Positions 37,369-62,126 of a stretch of 64,000 bases of DNA are shown one piece after another. Within the stretch, counting starts at the first letter, position 1. The number at the start of each line of letters is the position of its first letter. The translations under genes and the position numbers were made by a program. Under the pieces are notes generated by a model that saw only the letters and a list, made by a program, of their open reading frames with translations, made no database searches and had not been told where the DNA came from. Where the stretch lies: contig CDPCPM010000744.1 in the NCBI GenBank assembly GCA_976551045.1, forward strand, positions 12,338,001 to 12,402,000, read 5' to 3'. The stretch is from Glaucostegus cemiculus. Lineage: Eukaryota.

Positions 37369-37456
37369 ATGCAGAGAAGCGCCTTTGATCGGATATTGAA
37401 ACTTTATCGTACCAGATACTATTTTACGCATATTACTGCAGTGGTCGGAATACTCG
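37369..37456 (+). CDS. GPCR copy A, coding exon 1 (N-terminus and start of TM1)
   Basis: ATG at 37369, MQRSAFDRILKLYRTRYYFTHITAVVGIL, phase-1 donor G|GTAAGT at 37457. It joins exon 2 in frame to rebuild the TM1 'GN' motif and is conserved at 60338-60425. Confidence 0.85.
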
Positions 37457-37824
37457 GTAAGTATTACAGCTCTTTACCGTTCTCTGGTGATGGGTCTTTA
37501 AGTGTATTACATCTGTGGTTGTCGATTGTATGATGACACGTTGTCCAGTGTTTTTAAGATATGCACTGGAGATTAGTTTGAAAGAATCCATTCCATTTAT
37601 CGATATGCTCATATTTTTCATATTATAATTATAAACTGTATTTTTTTTCTGGAAGTCAATCGCTTTGTTTATGGGATCTTGGATTGTATCCTAGGAACCA
37701 CACATCCCTGTAATGAGCAGTGTAAAGTGATTTTCTTCCAACAATCACGAAGACATGTAATTGTGGTCACAGAGACAGGTGACACCTACGCTTGGAGCTG
37801 CAAGAGAGAATTGTGGATGCGGGA

Positions 37825-40800
37825 GAAGCCTGCTGGTTGTTGATGGAGGAACAGCTATTTGCCTTTGCTCCTAATTTAATTAACTCTTTAAACCCGGTTC
37901 TAAATCCTTTTCTTTTCATCCTCCGTAATACTTTTAAACGTCATTTTACTTTATTATGACTAGAAGGAGTGCCAAAGCTATGCAAATTACTAAGGAAGGT
38001 GATCCTCCTGTAACATTGAAACTATTTTCCAATTGCTTCGAAAACATGTAGATGACTCTTCCGAGCAGCTTCGACAGCTTAATTCCATGTTGGATTCTAA
38101 TTTAGACCTGGCATGATCATGACAAACGAAATAAAGTGATTGAAACGTCTCTTTCGATTTTGGATGGGAAAAATAATGTTAAAACCGTTCAGAATCTAAT
38201 GAAATATTAAAGCAGAATATTACCGACTTAGAAGACAGAAGAAACTGTTTTCGTATTTTGGGTCTTAAAGAATGCATTGAAGGTAACCAGCCTACGGAAT
38301 TCTTTGCAAACCTTTTGACTCAATTATTTCCCTCTTTTAAAATCTCTGCCTAAGGTTGATCGAGTACATAGGTAACAGTTGTAAAAACTTGCTGCGCAAG
38401 ACAGACACAGGTCAGTCATCATTTCTCTTAATGATTTTCTAATTAAGGAGCTTCTAGTTTATGATTCCCGTCGAAGAGGAATGATTGATTACCAAGATTA
38501 CAAGATCAGAATTGTTGAGAATTACTTAACCACGGTTATGAATGAACACGTTAAATTTAAAAAAGTCATGTCGGAACTTTATCATAAATGCTTTGAGCCT
38601 TCTCTCCGTTGCCTTGGTAGACTTAGAATTATTCTGAAAAATGGCTCGCAGAAGTAGTTTCGTTCGCCCGAGGAAGTTCAACGTTTTCTGGAAGCTGAGG
38701 TTTGAATGGTTAAGTAGTTTATTTTTTCACGAACATTTATTGCTTTTACTCTTGGTAACCCTCTTACTAATTCTTATATGTCTATGTAATTTGATTTTCT
38801 CATTTTTTTAATATGTTACTTTATGTATATACTTCTGAAGTCTTTTTTTACTAACAAGATTTAATAAGGATGCTTGTTATCTATAATTTTGTAACTGTGC
38901 TTTTTTAATTCATTGATTTGACAGGGTTGGAAAAACCTAACCTTGAAATTTAGAGAGCAGCGTGCTTGGGTCTAAACTGTCTGTAGTTAGCTGTCGGTTG
39001 CCTATTGGCCGGCTTTCTGTCTTTGGGTGGTGGGTGGGAGGGTGGTGAGTCTCTCTTTGGGAGTTGTTTTGGCCTCTCAGCCAAATTTGCCGCTGAATTA
39101 CCTTATCTGGAAGGTCACAGTTTGGTTTCAATCGACATCCCAGTATGGTTTGCTCGTAGTCATTTTTAAATTGCATTTAAACCATATTAAATTGGATCGA
39201 GTTATTAATTTATTTAGTTTCAGCGTGAAAGGGTTAAATCACCCTGTGAAACGTATTAATTTTATTGCCTATATTGAACAATTCAAGCTCCTATTATCTT
39301 TCTACAAGAAACTCATATATGTAACTGTGATATCTCGCGTTTTTTTAATTGGTGGAAGGGTTGCAATTTCATTCCTCTTACCAAGCTAAATCAAGTGTGT
39401 TCTCAATACTTATAGATAATACAGTTTCATTTGATCAACGTAAGGTAATAAATGACACTAATGGTCGCTTTGTTAGAGTATAAGGAAAAATAGATAATAC
39501 ATTGATGGTATTTGTCCATATTTATGCTCCAAACACTGATGACTCATGAATTTTTGAACGATCTTTTGCACAAGCTTATGAAGATTTGAATCTTTATTCT
39601 CTGGTTTAAGGAGGAGACTTCAAATGTTGGTTAGATTCAAGGTGAAATAGCTCATCTACTAAACGAGCAGCTCTAAATAAATCAACTTTATATCTTCAAT
39701 TGGTTTTAATAAACTCTGGCGTCCCTGATCTTTGGCGTTTTCTTCAACCAGAAGATGGAGAATATTCTTTTTTCTCACATGTTCACCATACACATACCAG
39801 GGTTGACTATTTTTTGTTGATAATCAAATGGTTCCATCAGTTCGATCCTGTAAATATAGACAGATAGCTATTTCAGATCGTGCTTCTGTGACTTGATCTT
39901 TAACTCTTCCTGGATTTCGTCAAGCAAACATATTTTGTCGTTTTAATCGAACTTTGTTATCTGATAAAGACTTCTTAAAATGTTTGAAGAAACAAATTAC
40001 TCTTTTCTTTAAAGCAATACGACGGAGGTAACTTACAGTTTTATTATATGGGATGCTCTTAAAGTCTTTATGAGAGGATAAATGGTTTCTTATACCGTAA
40101 GCGTTATGAAAAAAGCTAACAGAGAGAGAGAGTTGATTTCTCTAATCAGTTGAAACTACGAGACCAAAAATATACCATGGATCTAGATCCCGATTTGTAC
40201 ATGTCGTGTTGAAATTAAAACTAAATATGATCTCCTTTTAAAATATCCATTTGGAAGTCAACTTTAAAAAAAATTAAAGTCAATTCTATACTCATGGAGA
40301 CAAGCAGGTAAATTACTGACTAACCAATTAAAAAACTCTATTGCTAGACGAAAAATTAAAGAAATGTGCAAAGCTAACGGTGAGAGGACAATTGATCATT
40401 CATAAAAAATGATGCTTTTAGTGTATTTTATTCTTATTTAAAACTTCGGATTAATTTAAATTTGGGCCTGATTTATTTCAATGCATTAAATTATTTTATT
40501 TACCCTTCTCTGCTCTTGTTCTTACTAACTTTCAAAATTCCAAAACTTTGGAACTTCAACGTGGAATCAGACAGGGATGCCCTTTGAAACCTTTGCTTCT
40601 TGATCTGGCTCTAAAACATTGGCTTTTGCTTTTCCAGAATCGAGAGATATCGTTGGTATCTTTAGAAGTGTTACCCACAAGGTTTCGCTTTATGCTGATG
40701 ATTGATTTTTTTTTAAATTTGTAATGTTGAGACCTCGTTCCTCCCGTGCTTTCCCTATTTTCTTGTTTTAGCTGGTTTTCAGGATATAAATTCAATTTAC

Positions 40801-42003
40801 ACAAGAGTGAACTTTTCGTTTTGAAAAATCTGATATCATTTGATCTAAACCTTCCTTTTTAAATTGTAAGAAATCATTTTACCTATTTGGATGTAACAAT
40901 TACTAAAATACTTATTTAAAGAAAATTTGCTGACATTACTGAACTATGTGAAAAAGTTTGTATCAAACTCTATATTGTTGACTGCACGAATTAATTATAT
41001 TAAAAAGAATATTCTACCTCGATTTATATACTTACTTCCGGCGTTACCTGCAGTTAATCCTGTCCTTTTTTATTCTCTTGATTCAATTATACCTTGCTGT
41101 ATATGGAAAAACAAAAATCCTAGATTAAATAAAGCTCGCCTTCAGAAAGTTAAAAGGAATGGAAGTTTCGCCTTACCCAATTTTAGGTGCTATTACTGGG
41201 CAGTCAATATGTTTTGGTTAGATTACATTAATCATCAGGCTTGTCCAGTATTGGCTTCTTTGGAAGCTCATTCTGTTAACATATGTTTCTATTATTTCTT
41301 TGCTTGGCTATTCACTTCCTTTATCATTAAATACTCTAAATGATAATGTGGTAGTTATACATGTTTTGAGGATTTGGTTACAATCTGGAAAATATTTTGT
41401 TTTTTTCTAAATTTTCTTTGTCTAGTCCCATTTTTTCGATTCGTTTTAAACCTTCTATGACTGATGTAGTTTTTCAAGAGTGGGACAAATCGAGGATTAC
41501 TTGTTTTCAGGATCTGTTTGTCGGAGGAAATCTTTCTTCGTTTGAACAATTGTCAACTAAATACAGTTTAATAGGAAGTTGTTTTTTCTATATTTGCATA
41601 TTGGAGACTTTCTCCGACTTGAGTTTCACATATTTCCTGTGAGCCCTAACAGGAACTTACTAGATGTAATTTTTACTGTGAAGGCTCATTTATTATGGCT
41701 TAATATCTAATATTTATAACAGGTTATTAGGAATGAGTAAGCTTCCTTTAGATAAAATTAAAACTGATTGGGAACAAGTCTTGCAGATTTTAATTTCTGA
41801 GGAAACTTTCAATGAAATATTCAAATTGGTCAATAATTCAACATTATGCGCCCCTCACTCTCTTCTTCAATTTAAAGTGGTCATTGAGCTCACTTGTCCA
41901 AAGACAAGCTGTCCACTTTTTAATATATATGTATATATGCAGTAATGGAGACGCTTCTTTAAATCACATACTTTGGACATGTTCGAATCCTAAAAATACT
42001 GGA
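37825..42003 (+). mobile_element. Degenerate fish-type L1 LINE inside the GPCR A intron
   Basis: ORF1 remnant (R.LGLKE.IEG..PTEFF, about 38245-38310). ORF2 endonuclease motifs VKGLNHPVKR, YAPNTDD, GGDF, EYSFFSHVHHT, ISD; RT motifs RG.RQGCPL, SLYADD, SGYKFN; ends at HILWTC..YW. AT-rich and absent from paralog B. Confidence 0.88.
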
Positions 42004-42032
42004 TAGAGAAACGCAGATGCTGGAAATTGGGA

Positions 42033-42205
42033 GCAACAGACAATATGGTGGAGGAATTCATCGAGTCAGGCAGCACCTGGGGAAGAGAATGGACAGTCGT
42101 CGTTTCGTGTGGTGAGTCTTCATGTAGACTGCAAACTTCGACAGTCCATATCCCTCCATAGATGCTTCCTGATCCGCTGAGTTCCACCAGCATCCTGTGT
42201 GTTGC
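42033..42205. repeat. Imperfect inverted repeat (Penelope-end-derived palindrome) in the GPCR intron
   Basis: Arm 42033-42099 is the approximate reverse complement of 42139-42205; a centre-deleted paralogous copy lies at about 60817-60940. Confidence 0.75.
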
Positions 42206-42501
42206 TGGAGACCTTTCGTTTATGAAAACAATCTGCCATTCGTACAATCGTCAAGTTAACAAAAATTGGAATAAATATGGAAACGATACTAGTGTTCCAA
42301 CAAAAGCCGGGATGCATTTAATTTCCGTACAATTAGAGTTAGCTTTAGAGATGTGTCACTACCTTAATTAGTACATTGATGTTTCCTCCTCACACCCCAC
42401 CAACTCTTTGTTTTATCGTGCACTGGAATACAATAATTCGGAGTTCAACATCTGTGGCTTTTGTCAGATAAATTGAAAGTCTCGCGTTCCTTTCCCCACA
42501 G

Positions 42502-43391
42502 GTAATTTAACGGCGATCATCGTTCTGGGACGGGGAAAGTGCGGACTGTCCCGCTGCGTCACACACTATCTGGTGGCGATGGCAACAGCAGACCTATTGG
42601 TCGTCTTCTTCAACACGACGATACATTTTATTTATGGCGAAGTTTACCCCTATATGCCTCACACTCTCGCTTGCATCATTCAGAAGTCGATGGCGTTTGC
42701 ATCGTTCGATTGTTCCGTGTGGTTAACGGTGACTTTCACATTTGATCGCTTTGTAGCCATTTGCTGCCAACAATTTAAAACCAGGTACTGCAGGGTGAGA
42801 ACCGCCAGGATGGCGATAGGGACAGTGTATGTGCTAAGTTTATTAAGGAACGTTCCCTACTACTTTACATTCGAATCTTATGAAATCAACATACCTGTCG
42901 GTTGTGTTCATAAGGTGGAATTTAATTTCCTAACCGGGTGGATTGCTTTCTATTGGCTTCACAACATTTTAACCCCTCTGCTTCCATTCCTTGTTATTAT
43001 GTTACTTAACGTCCTCACGGTCAGATCTATCCTGGTGGCGAACAGGGCCCGCAGGAAGCTCCGCTCTCATGTCAGCGGCGAGAAAAAGGAGGACCCGGAG
43101 ATGGAGAGTCGAAAGAAGTCTATAATTTTACTGTTCTGTGTGTCGGGCAGTTTTATCCTACTGTGGCTAACTGAGGTGATTGTCTTCACGTACAAACAGA
43201 TAAGCAGCATGCACACGATCCCAAACTGGGACCATCCCCTGAACATAGCACTGAACGCCGGAGACATGCTCAAAATCCTAAGTTCGTGCACAAACGCGTT
43301 CATTTACCTTCTGACTCAGTCTAAGGTCAGAGAGGAACTGAGGAATGGAATCAAGTACCCCTTCACATTGATTCTTAAGTTAGTCAAATGA
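42502..43391 (+). CDS. GPCR copy A, coding exon 2; class A 7TM receptor, GPR139/GPR142-like chondrichthyan family (325 aa when spliced)
   Basis: Acceptor tttccccacAG at 42500-42501; frame GNLTAIIVLGRGKCGLSRCVTHYLVAMATADLL; TM3 Cys and FDRF (DRY variant); ECL2 Cys; TM5 Pro; TM6 SFILLW; TM7 SSCTNAFIY; stop TGA at 43389-43391. Family assignment is by motif recognition, not by search. Confidence 0.92.
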
Positions 43392-43559
43392 AAAGAAAGT
43401 GGTCGAAATAATGGTCCGATTAGCAAAAGCAGCGATGGAGAACACAAACCCATGTATCTTAACTCTCTGCAAATTACAAGCATTTGTTCTGAAAGAATGT
43501 ATTGTGACTCAAAACAGACACTACCCGCATGAAGTCAGGAGCATCACACAATGCAACAA

Positions 43560-43660
43560 ACCTCTGATGAAACAGTCTTCAACTTGAAACATTAACTGTT
43601 TCTTTCTCCACGGACGCTGCCTGACCTGAGTAATTCCAGCATATTCTGTTTTATTTTCAC
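43560..43660 (+). mobile_element. Penelope-end fragment with a hammerhead-like core, downstream of the GPCR A stop
   Basis: CTGATGA (43564-43570) ... GAAAC (43586-43590), then ..ctccacggacgctgcctgacctgagtaattccagcat; paralogous copy at 62315-62415. Confidence 0.6.
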
Positions 43661-44120
43661 AAGAACGGGTTCTTGATGCTCGGCATTGATTCTTTGCGCC
43701 GGCCCATTTCTGTGTTGTATGTCTCTATTACTCCAAGATTTCGAGAGATAATTTACTGCGTTATGATGAAAGAATATATCGGTTGTTAGGGTGATTAGAA
43801 TTGGGAGCAATGAGGTAGAATATTGGGTCGTTCACCTGAGGGTTGGATGTGGATTCATTCCTTTCCGGAAATGTTTTGGATCTTTCGATATGTTCATCTC
43901 AGAATCCCATGCATTCAAGTCTGGGGCCAATAGATTTAGAGTTAAAGTGTCGTACAGAAACTCTGTTTCTACTTCCATCTGCTGAGTGCCTCCATCATCT
44001 TCTGTGTTTTAGATTGTCCATGCTTGAGGTTTATCTTGGGCAGAAATATGATAAGGGGAATACGATACGTGGGTCAGGCAAGAAGCTGAGTTAAGGTCAA
44101 ATCAAAACTGTCATCATCTT

Positions 44121-46300
44121 CAAGGTTCAGGATTCAAGATTCAGGATTTGATGTATTGTCATTTCTCTGCGTAATTACATACACAAAAAAACGAAGTACT
44201 CTTTTTCACCAGCTCATATCAGTGCAACAAATAGAACAATGATAAATATCGAAAATAGTCTAAAAACATCCCTAAAACAAAACTAAAAACATGTCTACAC
44301 TACATATTCATGTCTGTTAAAGTGCGTTTATGTATTAATAAGTGCTCATACAGTTCGAGATTAAGTTCAATTTATCAGATAACTAACTATCAAACTGTTT
44401 CTGTATTGATAAGAGTATATACGTGTGTGTGGAGGGAGAGCTTCTCGGTGGAAGTGGAAGGAGACACAGTAAATTTATGATCCGGACTGCTTGAGAGAAA
44501 AAGCTGATCAGTATCCTACTAGATCTAGACAGATACTCCTATACGTCTTCTCCAACGGCAAGAGGGAAAACAGGTCGTGCGTAGAGCGATTAAAGTCCTT
44601 AATAATGGCCGTAGCTCTGCGAACGCTGCTTTGCTGATAGATCTCCATCAAAAAGGGGAGAGGGGCACCGATCATCCTGCGAGCTGTCTTCAGCATCCTA
44701 TTGAGCAGCTGTTTTTCGTAGACCTTTCAGTTACCAATCCAGGAGGTGAGAAAGTAGGTCAAGATGCTTTCAATGGTGGCCCTGTAAAAAGTGATGAGGT
44801 GTGGAGTAGGGAGGCCTGCCTTTCTCTGCAGGGGGTAAAGCCGCTGCTGGGCTTTTTTAACAGTGGTTGCAGTGTTAATAGTGGAGGTCAGATCCTCTGC
44901 GAGGTGAATCCCCAGAAACTTAAAGTTGCTGACCATCTCCACAGCAACACCATCAAAAGTCAGCTGTGTATGATCGTGCTTGCTAGCCCTCCTGAAATCA
45001 ATCACCATCTCCTTTGTTTTGTCCACATTGAGGGTGAGATTGTGAAATCTGCACTACGCTGTTAGCTGCTCCACCTCCATCCTATATTCAGACTCATCAT
45101 TGTCACTGACGAGACCCACCACTGTTGTGTCATCAGCGACCTTAATGATGTAGTTGGTAATGAATCTGGCAATTCTGTCATGTGTAAGCAGGCTAAACAG
45201 TAAAGGACTCAGGGCTCAGCCTTGAGGTGAGCCTGTGCTCACTGAGATGGTTCATGATGTATGACTGCCAACTCCAACTGTCTTCTGCCGCTGGGTCAGA
45301 AAATTGAGGAGCCAATTGCAAATGATAGTGTCCATCACTAACAGCCTCAGCTTTTCCACCAACTGTTGTGGACTGATCGTGTTAAATGCTGAGCTGAAAT
45401 CAATGAAGAGGATCCTGGCGTATGTACTCTTCCCTTCTAGATTTGACAGTATGAGGTGGAGCAAAGTGGAGATTGCATCCTCTGTGGATCGATTGACTCC
45501 ATATCCAAACCGTAGGGGATATACGTTTGGAGGGAGACCGGTCTTAATATGCTGCATGACCAGTCGCTCAAAACATTTCATTATTATTGGAGCAAGGGCC
45601 ATAAGGCGGGAGTAATTCAGGCAGGATGAGATCGACTTTTTTGGAACAGGAATAATCATGGAACTTTTGAAGCATGTGGACATTACTGTCTGGCTGAGTG
45701 AGATATTAAATAATTCGGCAAAGACACCCTTCAGCTGCTCTGCACAATACTTTAAACAATTTCAGGGATGTTGTCCGGCCCTGCCGCTTTACGTGGATTG
45801 ACGCTGGTGAAGGCCTTTTTCCCTCGAGCTGTACACAGCTGAAGTACCTGTTCTCTTAATGATGATGGAAGCATCTGTGCCTGAACGGTGTTATTTTGCC
45901 TCAAAACGTGCATAAAAACATTACGTTTATCTGGTAAAGAGAGTCATTGTGACATATCCGGGGGGCGCGGGGGTGGGTGCTTGTAGTCGGTGATTGTTTG
46001 AAATCCTTGCCATAGACGACGTGTGTCTTTGTTGTTTCTGAAATGGCTGTTAAGGTTCTGTCCATAAAGCCTCTTCGCCTCCCTGATCCCCCGGGACAAA
46101 GTTTTCCATCCCAATCTGTGTGCAGCAATATCCCCAGATTCAATTGCAGCATTACGGACTCTTAGCAGTGAACAGACTTCCCCAGTCAACCAAGGTTTCT
46201 GATTGGCACGCATCTTGATGGTTTTGACCACAGTCACATCATCTCTGCATTTATTGATGCAGCCAATGACGATCTATGTGTATTCCTGCAAGTCAACGAA
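44121..46300 (-). mobile_element. Rex1/Babar LINE, 5'-truncated, specific to block A
   Basis: ORFs 45252..45683 ([35 protein letters not shown]), 44727..45026 (KTKEMVIDFR) and 45944..46237 (NQKPWLT); short gattca-type tandem tail at 44121-44150; the site is empty in B near 62890. Confidence 0.9.
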
Positions 46301-47019
46301 AGAGTGGCCTCGAGGGACATTTGAGCGAGAGCTGATCCTCCATCAATTCCCAAAAATCTCTGGAGATCAATCTCAGCACAAAAAGTAATCATCCCCATCC
46401 CCTTGGTTACAGAGCAGCATCAATTGCGAGCCATCTGTCCGACCTCTTTCCTGTTAATCTCAGCAGGTAAAGGGAAACCCTTGCACCCTATACTTTATTT
46501 CCTGGTTCTGTTTTCTCCAGCCGGGGGATGCAAACTCTTAACCTTTCAACTTTTCTATATTAGGGTTAGTTTCCTTTATTTTCAATTGTTCTTCGTTATA
46601 TAGGCCATCCGTGCTCAGATATCTCCTTAACGGGTATCTCCGACCAAAGCCCGCCTCTCACTGATGAATCAATGGAGAACACCTGACCTCCAACACGGGT
46701 AATGCTTTGAAGGATACGGAGACAAGCTTACAGAAATTGTCACAGCCGTCTTTTCACTGATTTTCTGCACAATGGTGAAAAGACACATCTTCTCTTGCTC
46801 TTGTTTGCTGTACCTGATGGGAACATGTTGCTTCCCATGCAATAGTGAACGGAGATGACAGTGCGAACCATCTTATCATTACTACTGATGTATATTCGCT
46901 CGTTCCATTCTTCCTCCTGAGGTGAATAACTTCACGATTTCCCACGTATTTCTTCACCAGATTGACCACTCACTTGAACTTGCCACTTTGAAGTAACTTA
47001 TAGGCGGAAATTAAATCAG

Positions 47020-47405
47020 ATGATGCTGGAGGAAACCAGAGAAGTGGCTACAGGAATTCGGCACAGATCCCACATAGGCAGCCCCGAGGTCAGAACGGAG
47101 CCTTCGGTTCACCTGAGCAGTATAGCAACAACAATCTCCCGCCTGGAGTCCCTATCACAGATACTTTTGAATACTCCTCACGGTTCGTTCTTTGTTTTCC
47201 CAGTAATTTGCCTCATTAGCAATCTCGGATGAATTTCATTTCACAAAATCATCTAATTGGGAGGGCGGCACAGTGGCCCCTGCTTCACAGATCCAGAGAC
47301 TCGTGTTCGATTCTGACCTCGGCTCCTTTCCGTGTGTAATTTACACGTTCTCACTGTGGTCGTGTGGATTTCCCCCAGGTACCCCAGTTACCTCCAACAT
47401 TCCAA
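47020..47405. mobile_element. Divergent pair of old V-SINE fragments (- 47020-47130; + 47262-47405)
   Basis: B-box-like gtgttcgattctgacc and a V-core remnant; the same arrangement recurs at 63280-63700. Confidence 0.6.
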
Positions 47406-47729
47406 AGCTGTTTTGCTTGATATTAATGGGAGAGTCATTAATTATCTCAGAGTGGTTACATCACCATGGACACTGTTCGATCCCTCTATTCTTGATGTAA
47501 TTCAAATCCACCCTGCTCGACTTCGCCGCCCTCAATCAAAATCCTGAATATTGATGAATTTTACTTATTTGTCCCACACACATTTGAAACCAAACCCCGG
47601 CAGTATATTCCAGACACTCGTCGGAAAACTGTTCCCTAATTTGTCTCGGGGTAACCTGACTGCAGCGGAGCCGGAGACAGAGAGCTACCGTTATTTGGAG
47701 GCGCCACCGCTCAGTGTGTGTAGAAGAGA

Positions 47730-50700
47730 GAAAGTACACCACAGGAACACGATCTTCGGCACACCATGTCTGTGCCGTATCATGATGCCGAACTAAATAT
47801 ATCTCATCGACACCACTCCATCCCCTGCATTTTCATGTGCCGTCTAAATGCCTTCTTAATGTTACTATCGTACCTGCCTCCACCACAACTTCTGGCTGCA
47901 CGTTCTGAGCACCCACCACTCTCTGTGTAAAGAATTTGCCTCGGAAATCTCCTTTTGAACTTTCCCCCTCTCACCTTAAAGCTCTGTCTTGTAGTATCTG
48001 ACATTTCCACCCCGAGAAATGCCTCTCATAAATTTTTACAACTCTGTCAGTTCGTCCATTAACCTCTGAAGCTTCAGAGAAAACATTTCAAGATTCTCGA
48101 ACCTCTCCTTATGCCTATCCTCTTCAGTGCAGGCAATAGCCTGCTAAACCTTTGGCGCACACTTTCCAAAATCTCCACATCCTTCCACATGCGGTGACCA
48201 GAACTGCACACAATAATTCAAATGTGGCCTAGCCATGGTTTTATAAAGCTTAAGTTGACTCCCCAACTTCTCTGCTCAATGTCCCCACTAATAAATTCGA
48301 ATAATCCACACACATTCTTTCCAACCACGTCCGCGTGTTAGCACTTCCCTCTTACATTTGACCACACAACACTTCACGTTTGCACAGAGTAAACTCCATC
48401 TGCCATTGCTCCCTCCAAATTTCCAACAGATCTGTATCCTGCCGACACTTTTACCAATCTTCCACGCTGTCCACAACTCCGCCCGTTATAATTTCGTCTG
48501 CAAACTTACTAATCTGCCCACCTACATTTACTCCAGGTGTATATATCACAACCAACACAGGCCCAAACACAGATCACTGTGGAACACCACTAACGATTGA
48601 CTTCAAATCAAATTTACACCCCTCCACAAGTACCCTCTGGGATTTATTTGGGATTTATTCTACCAGCTCACGAGGAATGCATATGTCGTAATCTTTTGAA
48701 TGAGCTTATCACGAGGGATCTCATCGAATGTTTTACTAAATTCGTGCAGACAACATTCAATGCCCTTCATGATCTCATTCATGATCTTCGTAACCTCCTC
48801 AAAACTCAATCAAGTTTGTAAGACGGGTACTCCCCATCCGGTACAAAGCTATACTAACTATCCCTAATGGGCTCATGATTTTCCATATGTCAGTATATCC
48901 TATCCCGAAGAATCTTCACCAACACTTTACCAACCACAGGCGCAAGGCACAGTGACCTTAAACTTCTTGCTTCCTCCCTATCGATCTGACCCTTCCTAAA
49001 TAAGCAATAACAATGGTTATTCTCCAGTTTTCTGTGACCTCTATAGCTAACGGGAAAGCGAATGTCTCTTGCAAAAACTCAAACAATCTCCTCTCTTGCT
49101 TTCTCAATATCCTGCGCTAGTTGCCATTAAGTCTTGGGGACTTAAGCACCTTATTGTTCTTTAAGAGACCGAAGAACGCCTCCTTCTTCATATCCATATA
49201 CCGTTCTCTGATCTTGCGATCCTCCATCTCGTTCTTGGTGAATGACAAGTATTCGTTTAGTACCTCGCCCACTGATTCCAGGCATAAATGCCCTCCATTG
49301 TCCTTGAGTTGTCCTACACTCTCCTTATTACATCTTAATCTACATATAAAATTTCTGTACAGGTTATAAAATGCATAGGATGCTGAAAATTATAAACATA
49401 AAGATAGAGTAGGTGAGCAAATGAGCAAAGCATATTTTAGAAAGTAATTTGAAACTTCTGTGTGTATAGAGAAGAGTATGGATAAAATAGAGACACAATA
49501 AATTCTGCACATGCTGGAAATCGAAGTAATACACAAAAAGTGCTGGGCAGCATCCATGATGGGAAAACGAGAGTCGGTCCCTTGGAGGATGAAATTTGTG
49601 AATTAATAATGGGAAGTGGAGAAATAGCAGAGATTCAGAATAATTATTTTGGATCAGTCTTCACGGCAGAAGATACTGGGACCATCCGAATAATAACAGA
49701 TAATCAAGTGGCTATACCTAGACAATTGTTAAAGCAGCCTTTATCATCGGAGAAAAAGAACTAAGCAAGCTAATAAAGCAAAAGTCCGGCAGTTGCCACA
49801 TCTGATATGCCTTACAGGATGCGGATAATGAATTCATTTTTTATACTTTATCAAAATGCTGCAGATCTCCTGAGAAGTGGGGAAACGCAAATTTAACACC
49901 ACTATTAAGAAAAAAATGAGGTGGTAGGAGAGGAGATGTTGAGCGAGCGAGGGCTTTTCTCCTTGGAGTGATGGAGGATGAGAGACGACTTGATCCAGGT
50001 GAATAGGATTATGAGAGATCTCGGCAGAGTGGACAGCCAACATCATTTCCTCAGGACGGTAATGTTCAATACTAGAGATCTTCCCTTGAAGGTGTGTGGA
50101 GGAAAGTTCGAGGTTGGAGAGGTCAGAGAACGTTATTTAAACAGAGAGTGGTGGGTATATGGAATGCATTAACGGGAGGGAACGATACGACAGGATCATT
50201 TAAGAGTCTCTTAAATTGGCATATGGATAAAAAATTGAGGGTTATAGGAAGTGAAGAGAAGAGGGAGTAGATTAAATGCGGATAAGGTTTATGCAGATTG
50301 GAACAACATCGTGGGCCGAAGGGCCAGTGCTCTGATGCATTGTTCTATGTTCTATGAAACCTAAGCCTCACATCTACTATTGGAAAAATGTGGGATAACA
50401 GCATCAATTTCATAGTTGGATATTTGGAAACGGTAAGACAATCAAGCAGCATACACGCGATTTTATCAAAGGGAAATGGTCTGATAAATTGTCAGTATTC
50501 TCCGCGGATGTTAAAACAGGGGTGGGTAAAAGGGAGTCAATAGATGCAGTGCATTTCGATTTCCAGAAAACAGTCAAATTTTCATGTAAAAGGTTGCAGT
50601 GCAGGACCTGGACTGGGGCTAAAATATCAGCATGAACAGGGGATTGACCCGACCAACAGAAAACCGAGTGTAAGTCATTTTGGATTGCTGTTCAGTAAAT

Positions 50701-51670
50701 GTTTCGGGGTTACAGATTTAATTGCTGGGCTCTCAACTATTCACAATAAACATCGATCACTGGGATGAAGTGATGGAGTATACAGGGGCCAAATTTGCTG
50801 CTGATATCAAGACGGGTGGGTTAGCATGGTTTTAGATAGATTCGAAGAGCCCAGAAGGAAAATATAGACGAACGGAGACAGAATGGTTAAATGGGTAAGA
50901 ATCTGACAAATGGGAGTATAAGGTGGGAAGATGTGAGATTATCCACGTTGGAAAGGACACTGAAAAACCACCTTATTGTTTACACTTTTTTGCATTACAC
51001 GGAGATGAGAGGGCCCCAGAAAACAAGCAACTGAGATGAAAAATGGCACCGAAATAAAGAAAGTTAATCGGATATTATTTTTTTATTACAAGATCCATAG
51101 ACTACAACAGTAACGAATATTTACACAACATTGCAGGGCACCAGTGAGACATAATTTCGATTGTATAGCGGGCTGGTCTCTAAATGAAATGAAAGAAACA
51201 CTTCCGTTGAAGGCAGTGCAGTTAGTTGATTTCTCACATAAAGGGATTGCTGTACTGACAAAGCCAGCTGGGCCCGTACACACAGACCTTTATCAAAATA
51301 AAGATTATCTTTGTTAAATATATATAATTCTGAGCATGTTTGATGAGATGGATGTAGATAGCATGTTGCCTTTGTGGGATTGTCCAGAATAAGGGAGTTT
51401 AGTTTCAGAATAAAGTTTTGCCCACTGAAGATGAAGGAATTTCTTCTCGAAGGGGTTGGCGTAATATTGGAATCCTATACTCCAAAGAGTTGTGAAGCCG
51501 GAGTCAATGAATATATTTAAGGCGGATATCTACAAGGAATTAAACTGCAAGTGGGATATTGGACATGCAGAAGCGATCGGAAGGGTGTTGGAGCAAAACT
51601 GAATTTATCGCGATGTGATTGAATGGTGAAGCAGGCTGAAAGGACCGGCTCATCTATTTTTCTTCTTGGT
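47730..51670. mobile_element. Nested, degenerate CR1 fragments (- 47730-49330; + 49400-51670)
   Basis: CR1 motifs in ORFs 47804..48010, 48288..48476, 49540..49764 (VGPLEDE..AEIQNNYFGSVFT) and 49978..50172; gttctatgttctatg tail near 50345. Confidence 0.75.
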
Positions 51671-52364
51671 TTACTGAGGTACTGCTCCTTCATACCTTTA
51701 TTTATTGCTTGGTGGCCGATAATATACTCCCACAAATGACTTCTTGACATAATTGTCTCCGCTCAACTGTTCCACATCTTGAGTGTCTGAGTCAAAATAA
51801 TTCCTGACCACTGGTCTTTCCATTCAATAACAGAGGAGATTCGTTTCCTTTTCTTTCTATCCTTACGAAATTACGAATACTCCTGAATATTCAGTGGCCA
51901 CGCCCTGTAACACTTTAGCCACAGCCGGGTAATGCCTGCCACGTCAAATCCATAAGTTTCTATTTATGGCGTCAGCCCATCTCTCTTGTTACGAATACTG
52001 TCTTCAATAAGATAAGAGATTTTTAGTGTTATGTTTGCTCTGTCTCCAACTCACACACAACTTGGTTGGTGCATTCTCATGCTTACACACTCTGCCCCTT
52101 CTTCATATACTGCATGGCATATCTTCAGAGTAATCAGAGAGTACTGAATCACGGTAAGTGTTGGAATATCAGTGAGGGCTTGCGGAAAACTATAGTCCCT
52201 CAACAAGCGGCCGTGTCTTGAATTTCAATTACCGAAACCATGGTGGATTCAGAAACTGTGCTCCGAATGAAAAGCTCAAACATTCTTATCTGCCTTTAAG
52301 ATAAACCATCTAATCGATTTCCTAATAAATAAAAGCACACGTCAAAGTGTCGTTAATTATCTTA

Positions 52365-52600
52365 GATGCAGCCGATTGGATTCGATTCTGACTTCCGGTG
52401 CAGTCGGTGTGGTGTTTGTACATTTTCCTTGTGGCAGCGTGGGTTTCCTCACACATCCCAAAGACATGCAGTTTGGCGGTTTATGTGGCCAATGTAAACT
52501 GGGTGACTCTTTGAATCAGGAACGGTGTTTGGAGAGTTAGGGGGTGTGGCGGTGTGATGAGAGCGTGGGAAGAAAAGAATGGGGTTCCTGTAAATGGCTG
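52365..52600 (+). mobile_element. Old V-SINE
   Basis: ggattcgattctgacttccggtgcagtcggtgtggtgtttgtaca...gcgtgggtttcctc..acatcccaaagac. Confidence 0.65.
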
Positions 52601-54999
52601 GTGCAGAAGATTGCCAAAGTTTACAGCGAGATGGAGATCAGTTGCAGATATGGGCGGAGAAATATCAAATGGAGTTTAATCCGACCAAGTGTAAAGTGCT
52701 GCAATTTGTGAGATCAAATGTAAAGGGACAGTAGACATTTAATGGTAGGACCCTTACCAGGGTTGATGTACAGAGGGAGCTTGTGGTCTAAGTCCATAGC
52801 ACCCTGAAGGTGGCCGCACAATTTTGAGGGTGGTAAAAGGAGGCATAGGGCTGGCTTGCCTTTATTAGTCGAGGCACTGAGTTCAAGAATCTGAACGTTA
52901 TGTTGCAGCTTAAAAAGTTCTCATTGGGCCTCATCGAGAGTATTACACTCAATTCTGGTCGTCCCATTATAGGAGGGACGTGGATTGTTTGGAAAGGGTA
53001 CGGAAGATGCTTACCAGGATTCTGCCTGTATTAGAGGGCATGCGCTATGGGGCGAGGTTGGAGAGACTTGGATTATTTTCTCTGGAGCGGCAGAGTGTGA
53101 TGGGAAACTTGATAGGGGTTTATAAGATTATGAGAGGCGTAGACACAGTCGACAGAGGTTATATTTGTTCAGGGGTCAAAATGGCTAATACTACAGGATA
53201 GTAATTGAAGGTGAGAGAGGGAAAGTTCAAAGGAAATGTGCGGGATATGATTTTTATACAGAAAGTGATGGGTGCCTGGAATGTGCTGCCAGGAGTGGTG
53301 ATGGAGGCTGATACCATAGTGGTGTTCAAGAGGGACTTAGGCGCATGGATGTGCAGGGATTTTTATACAGAAAGTGATGGGTGCCTGGAATGTGCTGCCA
53401 GAAGTCGTGGTGGAGGCTGATACCATAGTGGTGTTCAAGAGGAACTTAGGCACATGAATGTGCAGGGAATGGAGGGATATGGTCATTGAATAGACTAAAG
53501 GGATTAATTTAGTTAGGCACTTTATTACTATTTTAATTATTTCGGCACAACACCATCGGCTGTACTGTACTGTTCGTGTACTGTACTGTTCTATGTTCTA
53601 TGTCCCTTTGCCAAATGTCGCCTGCTCACCCTGAACTCAGGGTCCCCTCTCTCGCCTTCTATCGTTGCCTTTTATCAGTCTCAATAGCCGAAAACAGAGA
53701 ACGCACGGCAAAACCCGTGGTGGTGATCATTAGTGGGCATTTCGTTTTATGACTATCTCGATACTCCACGTATGAAACGAGTTTCAGTATCCGTCCGGCA
53801 CCATTGGGGGCCATAGGACGGATGGGAAAAAGTGCGATTGCTCGGAGAAGAAGAAACTGGACTCCACTGCGAATCTATTCCACACTCTTTCTTAACGTTC
53901 TCGCGCTCAGTTGGTTGTACCCGCCCTGCTTGAACCATAACTACCCCCACGTCTCTCATGAAGCAGAAATAGGGGAACAGTACAGCACCTGAACAGCCTT
54001 TTCAGCCCACGATGTCTGTGCTGACCGTGATACCAATCCAAACTGATCGCACCTGCCTGCACATGGTTTCCATCCCTCCATGCCCTCCCGTCTAAACGTC
54101 TCTTAAACGCTGTGGTCTTATCTTATTCCACCATCGTCCCTGGAACCGGGTTGCGAGTACCCACCACACTCAGTGAAAAAAAAATTCGTAAGGTCGCAAC
54201 GTCAGTATGTGTTGTTCATCTGATTTAGTCTTGAGAACGTGGTGGTGTCGCTTAAACAGCCGCAGTCTTCCGGTGAAGGTAGTCACAGAGTGCTGTAGGG
54301 GAGGGAATTATTGCATTTGGACCCAAAGGTGAGGCAACGGTGATTAATTTCTAAGGCAGGATGGTGGGCGAGTTGGAGGGGATGGTGCAGGGGATCGCGT
54401 CCCCATGCATTTGGTAACTCTCTCCTTCTTGATGAGAGAGGTTTTGGAGATACGTCGGCGTGGTCTGGAGGAGTAACTGCAGTGGATTTTGTTGATGGTA
54501 CCTTGTGCACTGTCAGTGGAGGAAATGTTCTGATTGGCTGATGGGTTGTCAATCAAGTGGTTGCTGTGTTCAGGAAGGCGTTGAGCTGCTTGAGTGCTAT
54601 AGTAAGTGCAATTATCTGAACAAGAAGGGAATGTTTCCTCACGTTCCTGACTTGTGTATTTTAGGTTGTGGGGGAACCTGAGGATGTCAGTAGTTGAGTT
54701 ACTCCACACAGGATATCCAGCCTTTGACTTGCTCTTGTAAACGTGGTATTTCTTGCAGATGAGTTCGACGACAATGACCATCTCCCAGATATGTCTCAGA
54801 ATAAAGACTCGCCCCTTTAAAACTTATATGAGCAGGAATTTCTTCAGGCAGAGGGTGGTTATTCTGTGGAAATCGTTGCCACAGAGACCAACTTACTGGG
54901 AGTATTTTAGACAGAGATTGATAGGTTTTGATTGGCGAGTGGGTTAAGGATTAAAGGTAGAAGACGGGACTATGCGTTTGAAAAATCAACCATGATTCA

Positions 55000-57900
55000 C
55001 AAGATCACAAGATCACAAGATAATGGAGCAGAAGCAAGCCATTCGGCCCATCGAGTCTGCACCAAAGGGAAGGGAGGGTGGGGGAAAAAAGAGATTAAGG
55101 GAAAAAAAACCTACTATTCTAACTCCAAATCCCTGCCTTATCTCCATATCCCTTGATACCTTGACCAATTAGATATCTATCTATTTCCTTCTTGAATATC
55201 CCCAATGATCTGGCTTCCACTGCTTTCTGTGGTAAGGAGTTCCACAGGTTCACCACCCTCTGGCTAAAGAAATTCCTCCTTATCTCTGTTTTGAACCTGC
55301 TTCTTCTAATTCTAAGTTTGTGTCCTCTCGTCCTGGATTCCCCCACCAAGGGAAACAGCTTGACCACATTCACTTGGTCCATTCCTTTCAACATCTTGTA
55401 CGTTTCTATTAGGTCCCCTCTCATTCTTCTGCACACCAACGAGTACAGTCCAAGTGACGACAGTCGCTCATCATATGTAAACTTTCTCATCCCAGGAATC
55501 ATCCTAGTAAATCTCCTCTGAACCCTCTCCAACATCAGCACATCCATCCTAAGGTATGGGGCCCAAAACTGCACACAGTACTCCAAGTGAGGCCTCACCA
55601 GTGCCCCGTATAGCCTCATCAACACTTCCTTGCTTTTATATACTATACCCCTGGAAATAAATGCCAACATAGCATTCGCTTTCCTTACTGCCGATCCAAC
55701 CTGGCGGTTAACCTTTAGGTTATCCTGTACGAGCACCCCTAAGTCCCTTTGTACTTCTGTGCTTCCAATTTTATCTCCTTCTAGATAATAGTCTGCCCTT
55801 CCATTTCTACTTCCGAAGAGTACAACTGCACATTTTTCCACGTTGAACCTCATCTGCCGTTTCTTCGCCCATTCTCCTAGAATATCCAAGTCTCTCTGTA
55901 ACTTTCCTGTCTCCTCAATACTCTCCACTCCCCCCCCCCCAATCTTAGTGTCATCTGCAAACTTGGCCACAAACCCATTAACTCTTTCGTCTAAATCATT
56001 AATATACAAGGTAAAAAGAAGGGGCCCCAACACCGACCCCTGCGGAACAACACTAGTAACCGGCAGCCAACCAGAACACGATCCTTTTATTCCCACCCTC
56101 TGTTTCCTGCCATCCAGCCAACTCTCCACCCATTCTGTTATCCTGCCAGTTATTCTGTGATCTCTCATCTTACTAATTAGTCTTTTGTGCGGCACCTTGT
56201 CGAATGCCTTCTGAAAGTCTAAATGCACTACATCTACGGCCTCTCCCTTGTCCACCCTGCATGAGATTTCTTCACAAAACTCCAATAAATTGGTCAGGCA
56301 GGATCTTCCCTTCACGAACCCATGTTGACTAGGACCTATCTTGCCTTGCACCTCCATGTATCCCATCACCTCATCCTTGAGGATCGATTCTACTATCTTC
56401 CCCACCACAGATGTAAGACTGATAGGTCTGTAATTTCCTTTGTGCTGTCTCCCACCTTTCTTATACAATGGAACTACATTCGCGACCCTCCAGTCCTCCG
56501 GCACCTCTCCAGCGTCTATCGATTCCTGAAAAATTATCACTAATGCCTCCACTATTTCTAGAGCTACTTCCTTCAGTACACGGGGATGTATCTCATCTGG
56601 TCCCGGAGACTTATCAGTCTTTAACCCATTTAGCTTCCCCAACACTTTCTCTCTCGTAACCTTAACTGTCCTTAATTCCGTCCCTCGAGACCCTTGACTA
56701 ACCGGTATATTGTTAATATCTTCTACCGTGAAGACCGACGCAAAATACTGATTTAGCACCTCCGCCATCTCTTTATCATCCATAATAATCTCTCCCGCCT
56801 CATTTTCTATCGGTCCTATATCAACCCGCGTCTCTCTTTTGCTTCTTATATATTTAAAAAAAACTCTTAGTATCCTTTTGAATGTTTTCTGCCAATTTCA
56901 TTTCATAATTTCTCTTTTCTTTTCTAATAACCTTCTTAGTTTCTTTCTGTAGGTTCTTAAAAGTTTCCCAGTCTTCTGTTTTTCCGCTTTTTCTTGCTAC
57001 CTTATATGCCCTCCCTTTGGCTCTTATTTTAGCTTTCACCTCTCTCGTTATCCACATTTGTGCCCTTTTTCCATTTAAAACCTTTTTTTTTAATGTGTCT
57101 GTCCTGCATTTTCTTTATTACTTGCTTAAATTCCACCCATTTATGTTCTGCCGTCCCTCCAGCGAGCTTATATTTCCAATCAATCTGGGCCAACTCTTCT
57201 CTCATCCTTCTGTAATTCCCCTTGTTCCACTGAAATGTCGACACTCCAGTCATCAGCTTCTCCTTTTCAAATTTCATTCTGAACTTAATCATATTATGGT
57301 CACTAGTTCCTAATGGTTCCTTTACCCTTAGTTCTCTAATCACCTCCGGTTCATTACACAACACCCAATCCAAAACAGCCGATCCCCTGGTGGGCTCATC
57401 AACAAGTTGTTCCAAAAAGCCATCCCGTAAACATTCAACAAACTCGCTCTCCTGAGAACTGCTGCCTTGCTGGGTTTCCCAGTCCACCTTCATGTTAAAG
57501 TCACCCATAATTATTTTAATATTGTCACTCTGACATGCCTTTTCTATCTCTAACCGCAGCTTATGGTCTACCTCCTGATTGCTATTAGGGGGCCTATATA
57601 CAACAGCTACAACCGTCCTCTTACTGTTGCTATTCCTTAGCTTCACCCATAAGGTTTCCACTTCATCTGACCTAATGTCCTTCCTTTCTATTGATTTTAT
57701 CTCATTACTAACCATCATGGCCACACCACCCCCTCTACCTTCCTGCCTATCCTTCCTATACACTGTGTACCCCTGGACATTGAGCTCCCAGTCACATCCA
57801 TCATGCAGCCACGACTCAGTGATTGCCACAATGTCATACTTATTAATCTGCAGCTGTGCTACTAGGTCATCTGCCTTGTTCCTGATGCTACGTGCATTTA

Positions 57901-58210
57901 AGTATAATACCTTTTGCTCATTAACCACTGTTGATTTTGTTGCGCTTCCTTTTTTGAGCAACTTATCCTTAATTTTCATTTCCACGCCCTTCTTTCTATC
58001 CTGACTGCTCACTATCATGGACTTCTTTTTATCTGCCTCCACCTCTAGTCTAACATCCTGTGACCTAACATCCTCATTTACTGTACTATTGTCATTCAGC
58101 ATGTTACCTTGATTAATCACCTGCCTGTCCGTCTTGCCATCCTGATCACGCACTAACTTCGACCTATTTTTATTTAACTCTTGCCTTCCTCTATCTACTT
58201 TTACCCTAAT
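55000..58210 (-). mobile_element. Young CR1 LINE with near-complete ORF2 (endonuclease + RT), 5'-truncated
   Basis: ORFs 57029..58216 (YLNARSIRNK, AITESWL, GDFN, SDHN), 56854..57057 and 55119..56783 ([28 protein letters not shown]); (ATCTTGTG)3 tail at 54997-55021; attca repeat at 54995-54999 and 58211-58215; empty site in A near 35285. Confidence 0.97.
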
Positions 58211-60337
58211 ATTCAATGGCGGAGCAGACTCGATGGGCTGAATGGCCTAATTCTACTCCTGTATCTTATGGTTTTATGTCAATGCTTTGGTACTCGGCGA
58301 TAGTGATGTAATTTGCTGTGAAGTGTGGTAATGGTCATACTCCCACTCGTTGGAAATGGTCATTACCTGGCACGAGTGTGAACTGTTAGTTGTCGCTTAT
58401 TAACCCATCCCTAAATGTTGTCTAGATATTGCTGCATGATCGACATGCGATACGTTTTCCTTGTTGACGATGTCTTTTCAACAGGGTTCCGAAGTGGCAA
58501 CACATCAGGCAAGAACGGTTCAGACGGTTATCAAGTAATTCACTTGTTCCTCCCATCCTGCGACCTGCTTCTGATTTTACTTCTTTCTCCAACCTTTGTT
58601 TTCCCATAATGCCGCATGCGGGAAAACACTCTATTCATCAGTCTCATAAGACCACCCACTGAAGATTCGTGCACGAAGTTCTCGCTGATTTTGGTTACCA
58701 CCTTCACATCGTCCGTTATTCCTGAGGGAACAGAGTGGAACGACCTGAAACTTGCCATTCAGGACGCTCCCGGTCTTCTCTCCGCTCGGCCGAAACTCCT
58801 GTTGCCACTCACTCTCCGATACCTTGAGTTGGGAGTCCAAGCAGTTGGAGGCGCGTCCTGAACGCTTGCGCACCCGGAGACACGAAGTGTTCTAAAGATT
58901 GCAATTGGTGCAAGCATCGCAAGCAATGACATCAGCCTCCCTCCATAACAAAAGAAACACTTCCCCGCTCTTCTTTTTTCCAGAAATGCTTACCAATATA
59001 TTTCCTTATTGAACTATTCCATATTTTTCTTCTGAGGGGCTTACAAATTTAAGAGAATTTAAGTCAGCGAACAACATCTCCATCCATTCTGTCTAAACAT
59101 ATGAGTCAAGGATACTCTGTGCTAACGCGCCGCACTTTATTCATTATTTCTGGCTCAATATCAGATGGTTTAGTTTCGAATCCTTCTTCTCCCCACCCCA
59201 CGCCCAGAAGCAAGGATTTATAACTATGATTGAAGCAGAAAGTCAAACGAAACACTTGAATTGTTCGAACTCAGAGTGAGAATCAATTGCTTATCACCGA
59301 CCCAGAGGACGTGAAATCTGGTGATTAGCGGTAGCAGTACAGTGCAAAGATATAAAATCACTATAAATGACAAAAATATCTAAATGGTGCAAATTAAATG
59401 AATAATAACGTCGTGTTCATGGGTAGACGGACCGTTAGGAAATCAGCAGGAAAAGATGCTGTTCCTGAATCTGTACCTGGGGTATTTCCTACTTATTGGA
59501 CGCTGAGCGCTCTAATATTTTTACAGGACTGAAGTCTTCACGTAGTTTCTCAAAGAAAACAACATGTTCGGACACTTGAAATCACTGCTGTCTTAATGTA
59601 ATGATCTCTGTGGTGATTCGAAAGACTCTGCAAATGAAAGAGAATGATTCGAAGAAGAGCTTACACCCCAAATGTTTTGCTTATTTGCTTTTCCCGTGTT
59701 TAATAGTTTATTTCAGTGTAAGTAATGTTTTCTATGTGTGTTACATTTATTTAAATTCTGCAGCATTTCGGCTTTCTTGACTTAATCTTAATTTATGCCA
59801 ACTGTTTGAATTTTACGTGTATCTCGCCTTCCTCTCATTATTTGTCATTACTGACAAGTTGCCTGTGCATCTGAATCAGAACATGGTACCAGTTTTTCAC
59901 TGCAAAAGTCATTGTTTACTTTTGCTTACTTCGGCTTCGAAGGCAGCTAATACAATCTGTGCCAATCTTTGCCAATTTGAAATGCTTTAAAGGAGCACAC
60001 CAACTGCGACAGCTAAATGGTTAATTCATAAACGTCAATGCAATACAAATGATAAAGTAATTTAAAAACGAATTGAGGCAGAAATGGCGTTGAAAACCTT
60101 AGGAGTGAAATAATCTCAGGAGAGCAAAGTAAAAGCACAAACAAAAGATGTTCCGTCATATTTCTATTTAAGGGACCGGATTTAATATGTCTTTTGAGGA
60201 AACCTAATGGACACGAAGGAGATCGCATCATCTATAAGTAAGTTCCACCAGGTGGCTTTGATCATTCCATAGTGACGACGTATTTAATGACATTTGACCT
60301 TGCAGTCATCAGACATCGAGCCGCGCGGATAATCACA

Positions 60338-62126
60338 ATGAAGAGAAGTGCCTTTGATCGGATAGTGAAACTTTTTCGTACCATACACTATTTTACGTAT
60401 TTTACTGCAGTTGTCGGAATACTCGGTAAGTATTACAGCGGTTTGCCATTCACAGGTGATCGGTCTTTAAATTTCTTGGAGCTGAGGTTCTCAATTACAC
60501 GGTAATACATTCTCCAGGTTATATTTTTTTAAGATACGCGCGGTTGATTAAGTTTGACAGAATCCATTCCATTGTTAAATTTGCGCATATTTTTCATATT
60601 ATAGTTATGAACTATCATTTCATTTTCTCTGGAAAACAATACGGTTTTTTTCCAAGGGATCCGTGGTTAAATCCCAGGAAACACACATGCCTGTAATGAG
60701 CTGTGTAAAATGATTTTCTTCGCAGAACCACAACAAACTATAATTGCGGTCACAGAGCCAGGTGACACCTATACCTGGAGCTGCAAGAGAGAAATGCTGA
60801 TGTTGGGAACCTAAAGGAACACAAAAGATGTGAAATGAATTCAGCGCTTAAGGCTGCAACTGTGGAGGGAAATGGACAGTCCATTTCCTTCCATAGATGC
60901 TGCCTGATCTGCTGAGTTCCTCCAGCGTGTTGTGTGTTGCTGTATCTGGGGCTGGTTCGTTTATGGAAAAAAATCCATTCCTACAATCGTTAGGTTAACG
61001 AAAATTGGAATAAATATGGAAACGATAATCGTATTCTAACACCGGGATGTATTTAATTATGGTAAGTTTAGTGTTGATATTAGGGGTCTGTCACTGACTT
61101 CATGAGTGCTTGGATGATCCCTCCTCAGACCCCCACCAATTCTTTGTAATAGTGCGCTGGATTACGACAATTTGGAGTTCATCAACTGTAGCTTCTGTCA
61201 GATAAAGTAAAACTTCTCGTGTTCATTTCCCCACAGGTAATTTCACGGCGATAATCGTTCTGGGACGGGGAGAGTACGGACTGTCAAGCTGCGTCACCCA
61301 CTAACTGGTGGCGATGGCGACAGCGGACCTATTGGTCGTCTTCTTCAACACGACAATACATTTAATTTATAGCGCAATTTACACCTATTTGCCTCACACG
61401 CTCGCTTACATCATCCAGAAGTCGATGGCATTTGCATCGTTCGACTGTTCCGTGTGGTTAACTGTGGCTTTCGCATTTGATCGCTTTGTAACCATTTGCT
61501 GCCAACAATTTAAAACCAGATACTGCACGGTTAGAACGGCCAGGATGGCGATAGGGACAGTATACGTGCTGAGTTTATTAAGGAACGTTCCCTACTACTA
61601 TACATACGAGTCTTATGAAATAAGCTATCCTGCCGGATGTCTTCAAAAGGTGGAATTTAATTTCCTATCTGGGTGGGTTGCGTTTTATTGGCTTCACAAT
61701 ATTTTAACCCCTTTGCTTCCGTTTCTTGTTATTTTGTTGCTTAACGTCCTGACCGTCAGATCTATCCTGGTGGCGAGCAGAGCCCGCGGGAAGCTCCGCT
61801 CACACGTCAGTGGCGAGAAAAAGGAGGACCCGGAAATGGAGAGTAGAAGGAAGTCTATCGTTTTACAGTTCTGTGTGTCGGGCAGTTTTATCCTCCTGTG
61901 GCTGACCGAGGTGATTGTCTTCGCGTACTCACAGATAAGTAGCACGCACTATGTCCCAAACTTGGGTCATCCTCTGAACATAGCACTGAACGCCGGAGAG
62001 ATGCTCAAAATCCTCAGTTCGTGCACAAACACGTTTATTTACCTTCTGACTCAGTCTAAGTTCCGAGAGCAACTGAGGAATGGAATCAAGTATCCCTTCA
62101 TGTTGATTCTTAAGTTCGTTCAATAA
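60338..62126 (+). pseudogene. GPCR copy B (exons 60338-60425 and 61237-62126), probable pseudogene
   Basis: Same exon structure and splice sites as copy A, but in-frame TAA at 61302-61304 (TAT in A, codon 52), TM3 Cys to Tyr (61407-61409) and TM6 Leu to Gln (61866-61868). Confidence 0.85.

Follow-up and report, generated by a model that had tools for sequence, protein, structure and literature searches.

What is the role of a receptor gene pair, one copy intact and the other broken, in a 64,000-nucleotide stretch of the genome of the ray Glaucostegus cemiculus (contig CDPCPM010000744.1, hereafter C744, positions 12,338,001 to 12,402,000; hereafter the window)? The pair is by itself ordinary, but the family to which it belongs is striking as a whole: its members number in the thousands, with a pocket that varies and an inner face that stays constant, and turn over by duplication and loss. 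Judging from sequence, we hold with a little more confidence than doubt that this family is a chemosensory receptor repertoire of sensory neurons, most likely those of the nose.

The gene pair in the window

Copies A and B each belong to a duplicated unit, about 15-19 kb long, the two units aligning with each other at 75-84%, and no third copy of the receptor gene was found in the 64-kb window. Positions within the window are as follows:

37369..37456, plus strand: coding exon 1 of copy A (88 nt; N-terminus and outer part of transmembrane helix 1; phase-1 GTAAGT donor)
37457..42501, plus strand: intron of copy A (5,045 nt; about 37811-42139 without counterpart in copy B)
42502..43391, plus strand: coding exon 2 of copy A, from N1.50 to the stop; intact seven-transmembrane (7TM) receptor of the rhodopsin family
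60338..60425, plus strand: coding exon 1 of copy B
61237..62126, plus strand: coding exon 2 of copy B, a pseudogene (stop at 61302-61304; C3.25 replaced by Tyr at 61407-61409)
33026..48013, plus strand: duplication unit with copy A (piecewise alignment, 75-84%, to 52601-63993)
52601..63993, plus strand: duplication unit with copy B, extending to the window end

Copy A is an intact G protein-coupled receptor (GPCR) of class A and copy B a pseudogene. Spliced by its coordinates, copy A encodes 325 aa in two exons free of stops, the sole profile above cut-off being 7tm_1 (E 8e-23, profile search), and its exon 2 was modelled by AlphaFold (predicted local distance difference test, pLDDT, 87) as seven long helices plus helix 8. 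It also carries the class A hallmarks N1.50, D2.50, the DR motif, W6.48, Y7.53 and the disulfide between C3.25 and extracellular loop 2 (ECL2). Copy B is collinear with it, of equal length and without indels, and has a premature TAA at codon 52 as well as the loss of the disulfide cysteine C3.25. A candidate short intron in the 5' untranslated region (5'-UTR) is common to the window's subfamily, whose first coding exon is longer than usual (88 nt vs 67-70).

The copies differ at 52 amino acids across 325 codons. The initial annotation of this locus, made from the sequence alone, had counted 40 differences and no indels between two exon-2 open reading frames (ORFs) of 272 aa; our recount agrees for codons 53-325 (273 positions), the figure of 272 being the stretch that follows the stop of copy B, whereas exon 2 itself is longer. 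The three outward-facing segments named there, which were delimited after the data had been inspected, indeed hold 23 of the 40 differences in 59 of the 273 positions. With limits set by topology instead, ECL1-3 hold 18/40 (51/273 positions; p=1.2e-4) and the whole outer half 24/40 (123/273; p=0.04), and codons with synonymous changes only show no such loop bias (6/43 in loops; Fisher p=0.002). The loop excess is thus real, and the description of transmembrane (TM) cores and intracellular loops as nearly identical was slightly overstated, as 17 of the 40 changes lie outside those segments. Moreover, the differences include decay at sites conserved in the family (C87Y, one of the 23, and C43Y, T109A, A115T and L240Q); since copy B is dead, these two copies by themselves say little about selection.

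Size and turnover of the family

The strict motif FDRF[VI]AICC has 3,327 exact matches in the genome (control, 0) and a looser family motif 5,081 (control, 16). All 110 motif loci inspected were family members; they comprised the first 30 strict matches, 76 loci hand-picked, with many obvious repeats skipped, among 336 rare-codon matches of which the first 100 were considered, and four matches to the loose motif only. The G. cemiculus genome contains about 5,000 family loci, far above the guess of the initial annotation, which had named one or two copies genome-wide as grounds for rejecting a receptor repertoire. Exon-2 frames were intact at 65 of 106 loci (22/30 first strict matches and 43/76 hand-picked ones) and at one of the four loose-only loci, and 41 of the 76 were complete two-exon ORFs with both exons and an ATG. 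About 40-45% of the checked loci are therefore broken, in motif-based samples that are biased towards intact copies.

Part of this count may be haplotype redundancy, a point that weighs against so large a repertoire: 17 of the 76 sampled loci have a twin of at least 99% identity, which, if twins are scattered at random, amounts to about 1.1 twins per locus and about 2,400 distinct loci. Near-identical loci also occur as triplets, so that part of the redundancy is real duplication, and by our estimate 1,000-3,000 intact receptors are left after near-identical twins are collapsed. Diploidy of the whole assembly was ruled out, as RAG2, GPR139 and a single-copy relative on contig C233 occur once each in the genome; redundancy may still be present locally. 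The window's own cluster has 22 matches at 75% identity or more over 1.8 Mb, of which 16 are distinct and eight intact. On the same contig, the interval 12.26-12.40 Mb has a counterpart of 99.5-99.9% identity some 563 kb downstream, at 12.82-12.96 Mb, which includes six receptor loci and represents either a recent segmental duplication or assembly redundancy.

The protein search of the genome yielded 19,414 first-look candidates, of which 133 were scored. In public databases, 1,774 of 2,855 candidates were related proteins at E<=1e-10, and 119 of the 120 matches listed were shark or ray proteins, nearly all automatically named GPR139, with large expansions in many genera. Other members bear the names vasopressin V2 receptor-like, GPR15-like and GPR142 (P0173, P0056 and P0001), and such inconsistent naming helps to conceal the size of the family. 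One subfamily (L090, L099, L156-L159, L166) has N-terminal extensions, with a first coding exon of about 130-250 nt, compared with the usual N-terminus of 22 residues.

Descent from a single-copy gene

We computed a maximum-likelihood (ML) tree of 56 sequences, rooted on 10 invertebrate-like unnamed receptors, which included 26 of our 66 non-redundant members and lacked GPR142. All 37 shark and ray family sequences form one clade (100/97; long branches flagged), within which stingray and skate proteins join copy A (100/100) and the subfamilies are old, being common to sharks and rays. The sister of the whole family is a salamander gene (100/99), followed by two other single-copy vertebrate genes, and GPR139 (L061) stands outside (100/95). 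Hence, no clade unites the family with GPR139 without taking in other vertebrate genes, nor does the family cluster with an unrelated, well-characterised receptor family, as the initial annotation had allowed. The sister gene, automatically called "probable GPR139" (for instance XP_069092602.1), gave one match per species in 20 amphibians and is also present in sturgeon and reedfish; among 119 scored candidates of the ray genome no closer ortholog was found (best 32-38%), which makes the family a likely co-ortholog of the amphibian gene. The family thus goes back to a gene of which amphibians, sturgeon and reedfish have one copy, and originated in the GPR139/FMRFamide/MIP receptor group.

This tree also bears on whether the receptors are true paralogs of GPR139 and GPR142, orphan receptors of class A that respond to L-Trp and L-Phe (PDB 7VUG), and act as aromatic amino-acid sensors, as the initial annotation had suggested. 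GPR139 is the best PDB match by sequence (E 8.6e-14) and comes first in the fold search, which was non-discriminating, placing it barely above peptide and chemokine receptors; look-alikes from a structure atlas yielded the same automatic names only. The family further resembles GPR139 and GPR142 in its 7tm_1 fold and in a TM7 NxxxY motif without proline, and a phase-1 intron before N1.50 is common to the family, a single-copy relative and GPR139 (acceptor seen in L061). Yet the true GPR139 of this genome, a single copy compared with thousands here, is only about 24% identical to the family, and two other vertebrate lineages are closer in the tree.

The pocket speaks in the same sense. Agonist contacts of GPR139, as given in part of a published account (PMC8807744), are E3x32, F3x33, a W in ECL2, H5x43, W6x48, R6x51 and N7x38. 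Of these, F3x33, H5x43 and W6x48 are retained in copy A; at 3x32, 6x51 and 7x38 it has A, E and D, and these three positions vary freely across the family, W6x48 alone being fixed family-wide. As the polar residues are not kept, an amino-acid receptor is unsupported, and we consider such paralogy highly improbable. In the window's subfamily the pocket is acidic instead (E6x51, D/E7x38 and mostly E in ECL2), which predicts a cationic ligand, an amine or a basic peptide, and not Trp or Phe. The amphibian sister gene, itself uncharacterised, differs from the family in that its pocket is fixed and partly basic (R2x61, K6x51, K6x55, R7x35).

Two further receptors emerged from these searches. L087 (C233:9989800-9999790) is a conserved, single-copy, unnamed GPCR, 61% identical to a coelacanth protein, which groups with teleost and other proteins automatically named GPR139 and is distinct from both GPR139 and the family. 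L088 (C46:20060370-20070360) is an apparently single, long-branch GPR139-related receptor, whose first exon did not turn up within 9 kb. For the ancestral role, electroreception was considered and discarded, as the sister gene is retained in frogs, which have no ampullary organs.

Variability of the pocket and selection

Across the 66 non-redundant members (mean identity 50%), positional entropy is 2.2 bits in the outer half of the receptor vs 1.05 in the inner half (2.06 vs 0.92 for the TM parts alone). It exceeds 3 bits at the pocket positions 3x32, 6x51, 6x58 and 7x38, whereas hardly any variation is seen at W6x48, at DR and in the inner loops; dozens of residues are near-invariant despite the low mean identity. 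A matched single-copy control does not behave in this way: among 20 single-copy amphibian orthologs (79% identity) the outer/inner ratio was 0.50 and pocket entropy 0.06 bits, compared with 1.91 and 0.89 among eight paralogs of the window's subfamily (81% identity), which answers the concern of the initial annotation that loop dN/dS might be no higher than in single-copy GPCRs.

To assess selection, we applied a purpose-written codon model to the intact frames of six subfamilies chosen by hand, with 7-13 sequences each. The comparison of M8 with M8a was significant in three (p 5e-9, 2e-17 and 2e-13); all 37 selected sites face outward, including 3x29, 3x32, 3x33, 6x51 and 7x38, and null simulations were positive in 0/6. 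Outer omega exceeded inner omega in 6/6 subfamilies, with inner values of 0.17-0.41. Positive selection, for which site models had been proposed at the outset, is thus seen in half of the subfamilies, and two of the others, together with that of the window itself (p=0.2; omega 0.59 outer, 0.30 inner), lack significant support for it, which has to be counted on the opposite side. Gene conversion could inflate these tests; a PHI-like recombination test was negative on three subfamilies, with little power at only 7-20 informative sites. As far as codon substitutions tell, the receptors are under purifying selection inside and diversify outside.

One might instead envisage that a gene of minor endogenous role was amplified in a largely neutral way, by segmental duplication plus redundancy of the assembly, the outer variability reflecting relaxed constraint. 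The large fraction of broken loci, the many 99% twins, the near-identical 563-kb-offset duplicate on the window's contig and the three subfamilies without significant omega>1 would all fit. Neither the low inner omega and the near-invariant residues, nor the exclusively outward position of sites with omega>1, nor the family's strong expansion across numerous genera of sharks and rays would be expected from it, and this explanation is quite improbable, being largely refuted by purifying selection. Counts, intact and broken loci, entropy and selection tests together bear out what had been suspected from two copies, namely birth-and-death turnover and ligand-side divergence in a large, uncharacterised chondrichthyan family.

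Promoter regions

Upstream of both copies we noted the following candidate elements:

37144..37153, plus strand: putative O/E (EBF)-like palindrome of copy A, 55 nt before the TATA-like box and kept in paralogs on C744
37171..37180, minus strand: putative forkhead-like site of copy A
37199..37205, plus strand: putative TATA-like box of copy A
37272..37336, plus strand: candidate 5'-UTR intron of copy A (GTAAGT ... pyrimidine tract and AG), likewise present in copy B and in paralogs on C744
60114..60305, plus strand: putative promoter-like region of copy B (O/E-like at 60114, forkhead-like at 60137, TATA-like at 60165)
60238-60305, plus strand: candidate 5'-UTR intron of copy B

Between A and B, promoter identity (0.85) is only slightly higher than that of the flanks (0.81-0.83). 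In a set of 28 non-redundant upstream regions, 24 of them with a TATA match, the top de novo motif was TGTC(C/T)CagtGGAGA-like (log-likelihood 112; three control windows gave 67-83). Matched against what we take to be the O/E (EBF) consensus, 14 of the 24 promoters have a 6-of-8 match at most 40 nt before the TATA box, mostly 20-27 nt away (about 21), compared with a background of 6.9% of 840 windows. Forkhead-like sites are modestly enriched (22/28 vs a shuffle maximum of 17). Ebf and Lhx2 sites are over-represented in the promoters of mouse OR genes, according to part of one report (PMC5608512), and the O/E-like motif hints at olfactory-type control.

Several results detract from this hint. 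The promoters are related by descent, which inflates the motif p-value; copy A, with its site 55 nt away, does not pass the TATA-anchored test; unanchored O/E counts are marginal; and a homeodomain motif was no more frequent in the 28 regions than shuffles would give (22/28 vs a mean of 17.3 and a maximum of 22). In addition, EBF is not specific to the nose, as EBF and forkhead factors drive B-cell genes too.

EBF-like and forkhead-like sites would also suit lymphocytes, and the main competing explanation is an innate-immune or leukocyte repertoire, similar to FPR, MRGPR or chemoattractant receptors, that recognises peptides of microbes or parasites and is driven to diversify by an arms race. 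Heavy turnover and the positive selection seen in loops and pocket would be in line with this. Furthermore, or1 and or4 of the catshark are spleen-specific (part of PMC11979771), so that the class of a receptor does not fix its tissue. On the other hand, positions deep in the pocket vary too, in addition to the surface loops, and the subfamilies are old and common to sharks and rays. Germline GPCRs by the thousand are not known outside the olfactory families, and we regard an immune role as unlikely, if serious.

Receptors of solitary chemosensory cells in skin, gill or gut, of taste buds, or of MRGPR-like somatosensory neurons would draw on the same sequence evidence as receptors of the nose, and EBF factors are active in many sensory neurons. 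Such extra-nasal chemosensory systems usually employ tens of receptors, and nothing tissue-specific was found here. Their case is helped by the mere 2-5 taste receptors of cartilaginous fishes (part of PMC10869828); all told, it is distinctly unlikely.

A putative olfactory repertoire

Returning to an olfactory function, the traits of such repertoires that we observed are a large, clustered family with birth-and-death turnover, and pocket hypervariability over a conserved inner face beyond that of the single-copy control. With OR, TAAR, V1R and V2R the family shares, on sequence evidence, tandem clusters, this turnover, the variable pocket and constant inner face, a short N-terminus and possibly an O/E-like promoter site, whereas it differs by its two coding exons and its ancestry and does not belong to any of them by sequence: OR (7tm_4 included), V1R and class C profiles gave no match on copy A, and its PDB matches contain neither OR nor TAAR. 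It is also reminiscent of the MRGPR and FPR of mammals, lineage-specific class A expansions with a diversified ligand side in sensory neurons and immune cells, which are an unrelated lineage of tens of genes vs thousands here.

In our model, sparse expression of each gene, in a few neurons, would be driven by the O/E (EBF)-type site next to its TATA box; water-borne ligands would be bound in the 7TM pocket, a different one by each receptor, and all receptors would signal via one shared G protein, either Go, or Gq to PLC and TRPC2. We propose such shared signalling because the olfactory neurons of the catshark are all Go+/TRPC2+, with V2R-expressing cells sparse (part of PMC10116579). The same source, against our model, explains the shark nose by V2Rs. 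In the ray genome a single match to OR stands beside 44 to class C (NCD3G); 27 of the latter lie in one cluster (C243, 4.8-6.0 Mb), which is probably a V2R array. Known olfactory receptors of cartilaginous fishes average 43.8 (range 20-62; vertebrate maximum 2,514), as stated in part of PMC10869828. It is conceivable, at slightly less than an even chance, that sharks and rays smell with a fifth, hitherto unrecognised vertebrate olfactory receptor family, derived from a neuropeptide-receptor-like gene, whose more than 1,000 intact genes would replace the missing ORs and place this ray among the vertebrates with the largest chemoreceptor repertoires.

Neighbouring features

55119..58246, minus strand: long interspersed nuclear element (LINE) in the unit of copy B only, with endonuclease and reverse-transcriptase frames

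This element looks young (frames of 405 aa for the endonuclease and 592 aa for the reverse transcriptase) and was inserted after the duplication. Farther upstream, at 9104-19705, a unit of 2.5 kb is repeated about four times in tandem (82-89% identity), together with LINE-like fragments; Tandem Repeats Finder missed this array because of its period.

Significance

The expansion is undescribed in the literature that we searched, a scope to which subscription journals and alternative family names are external; GPR139 does not appear in the portion seen of the main text of the catshark genome paper, nor sharks in that of a GPR139 review. The sequences themselves are already public, under a misleading automatic name. 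A whale shark study refers, in part of its text, to a "relative paucity" of GPCRs (PMC8455134), and a family of 1,000-3,000 intact receptors overturns this claim for cartilaginous fishes, in whichever tissue they act. If immune, they would form a germline GPCR repertoire without precedent. The single-copy sister gene of amphibians offers a tractable route to the ancestral ligand. Finally, cartilaginous fishes combine large noses with about 44 credited olfactory receptor genes (part of PMC10869828), and this paradox of shark smell becomes testable.

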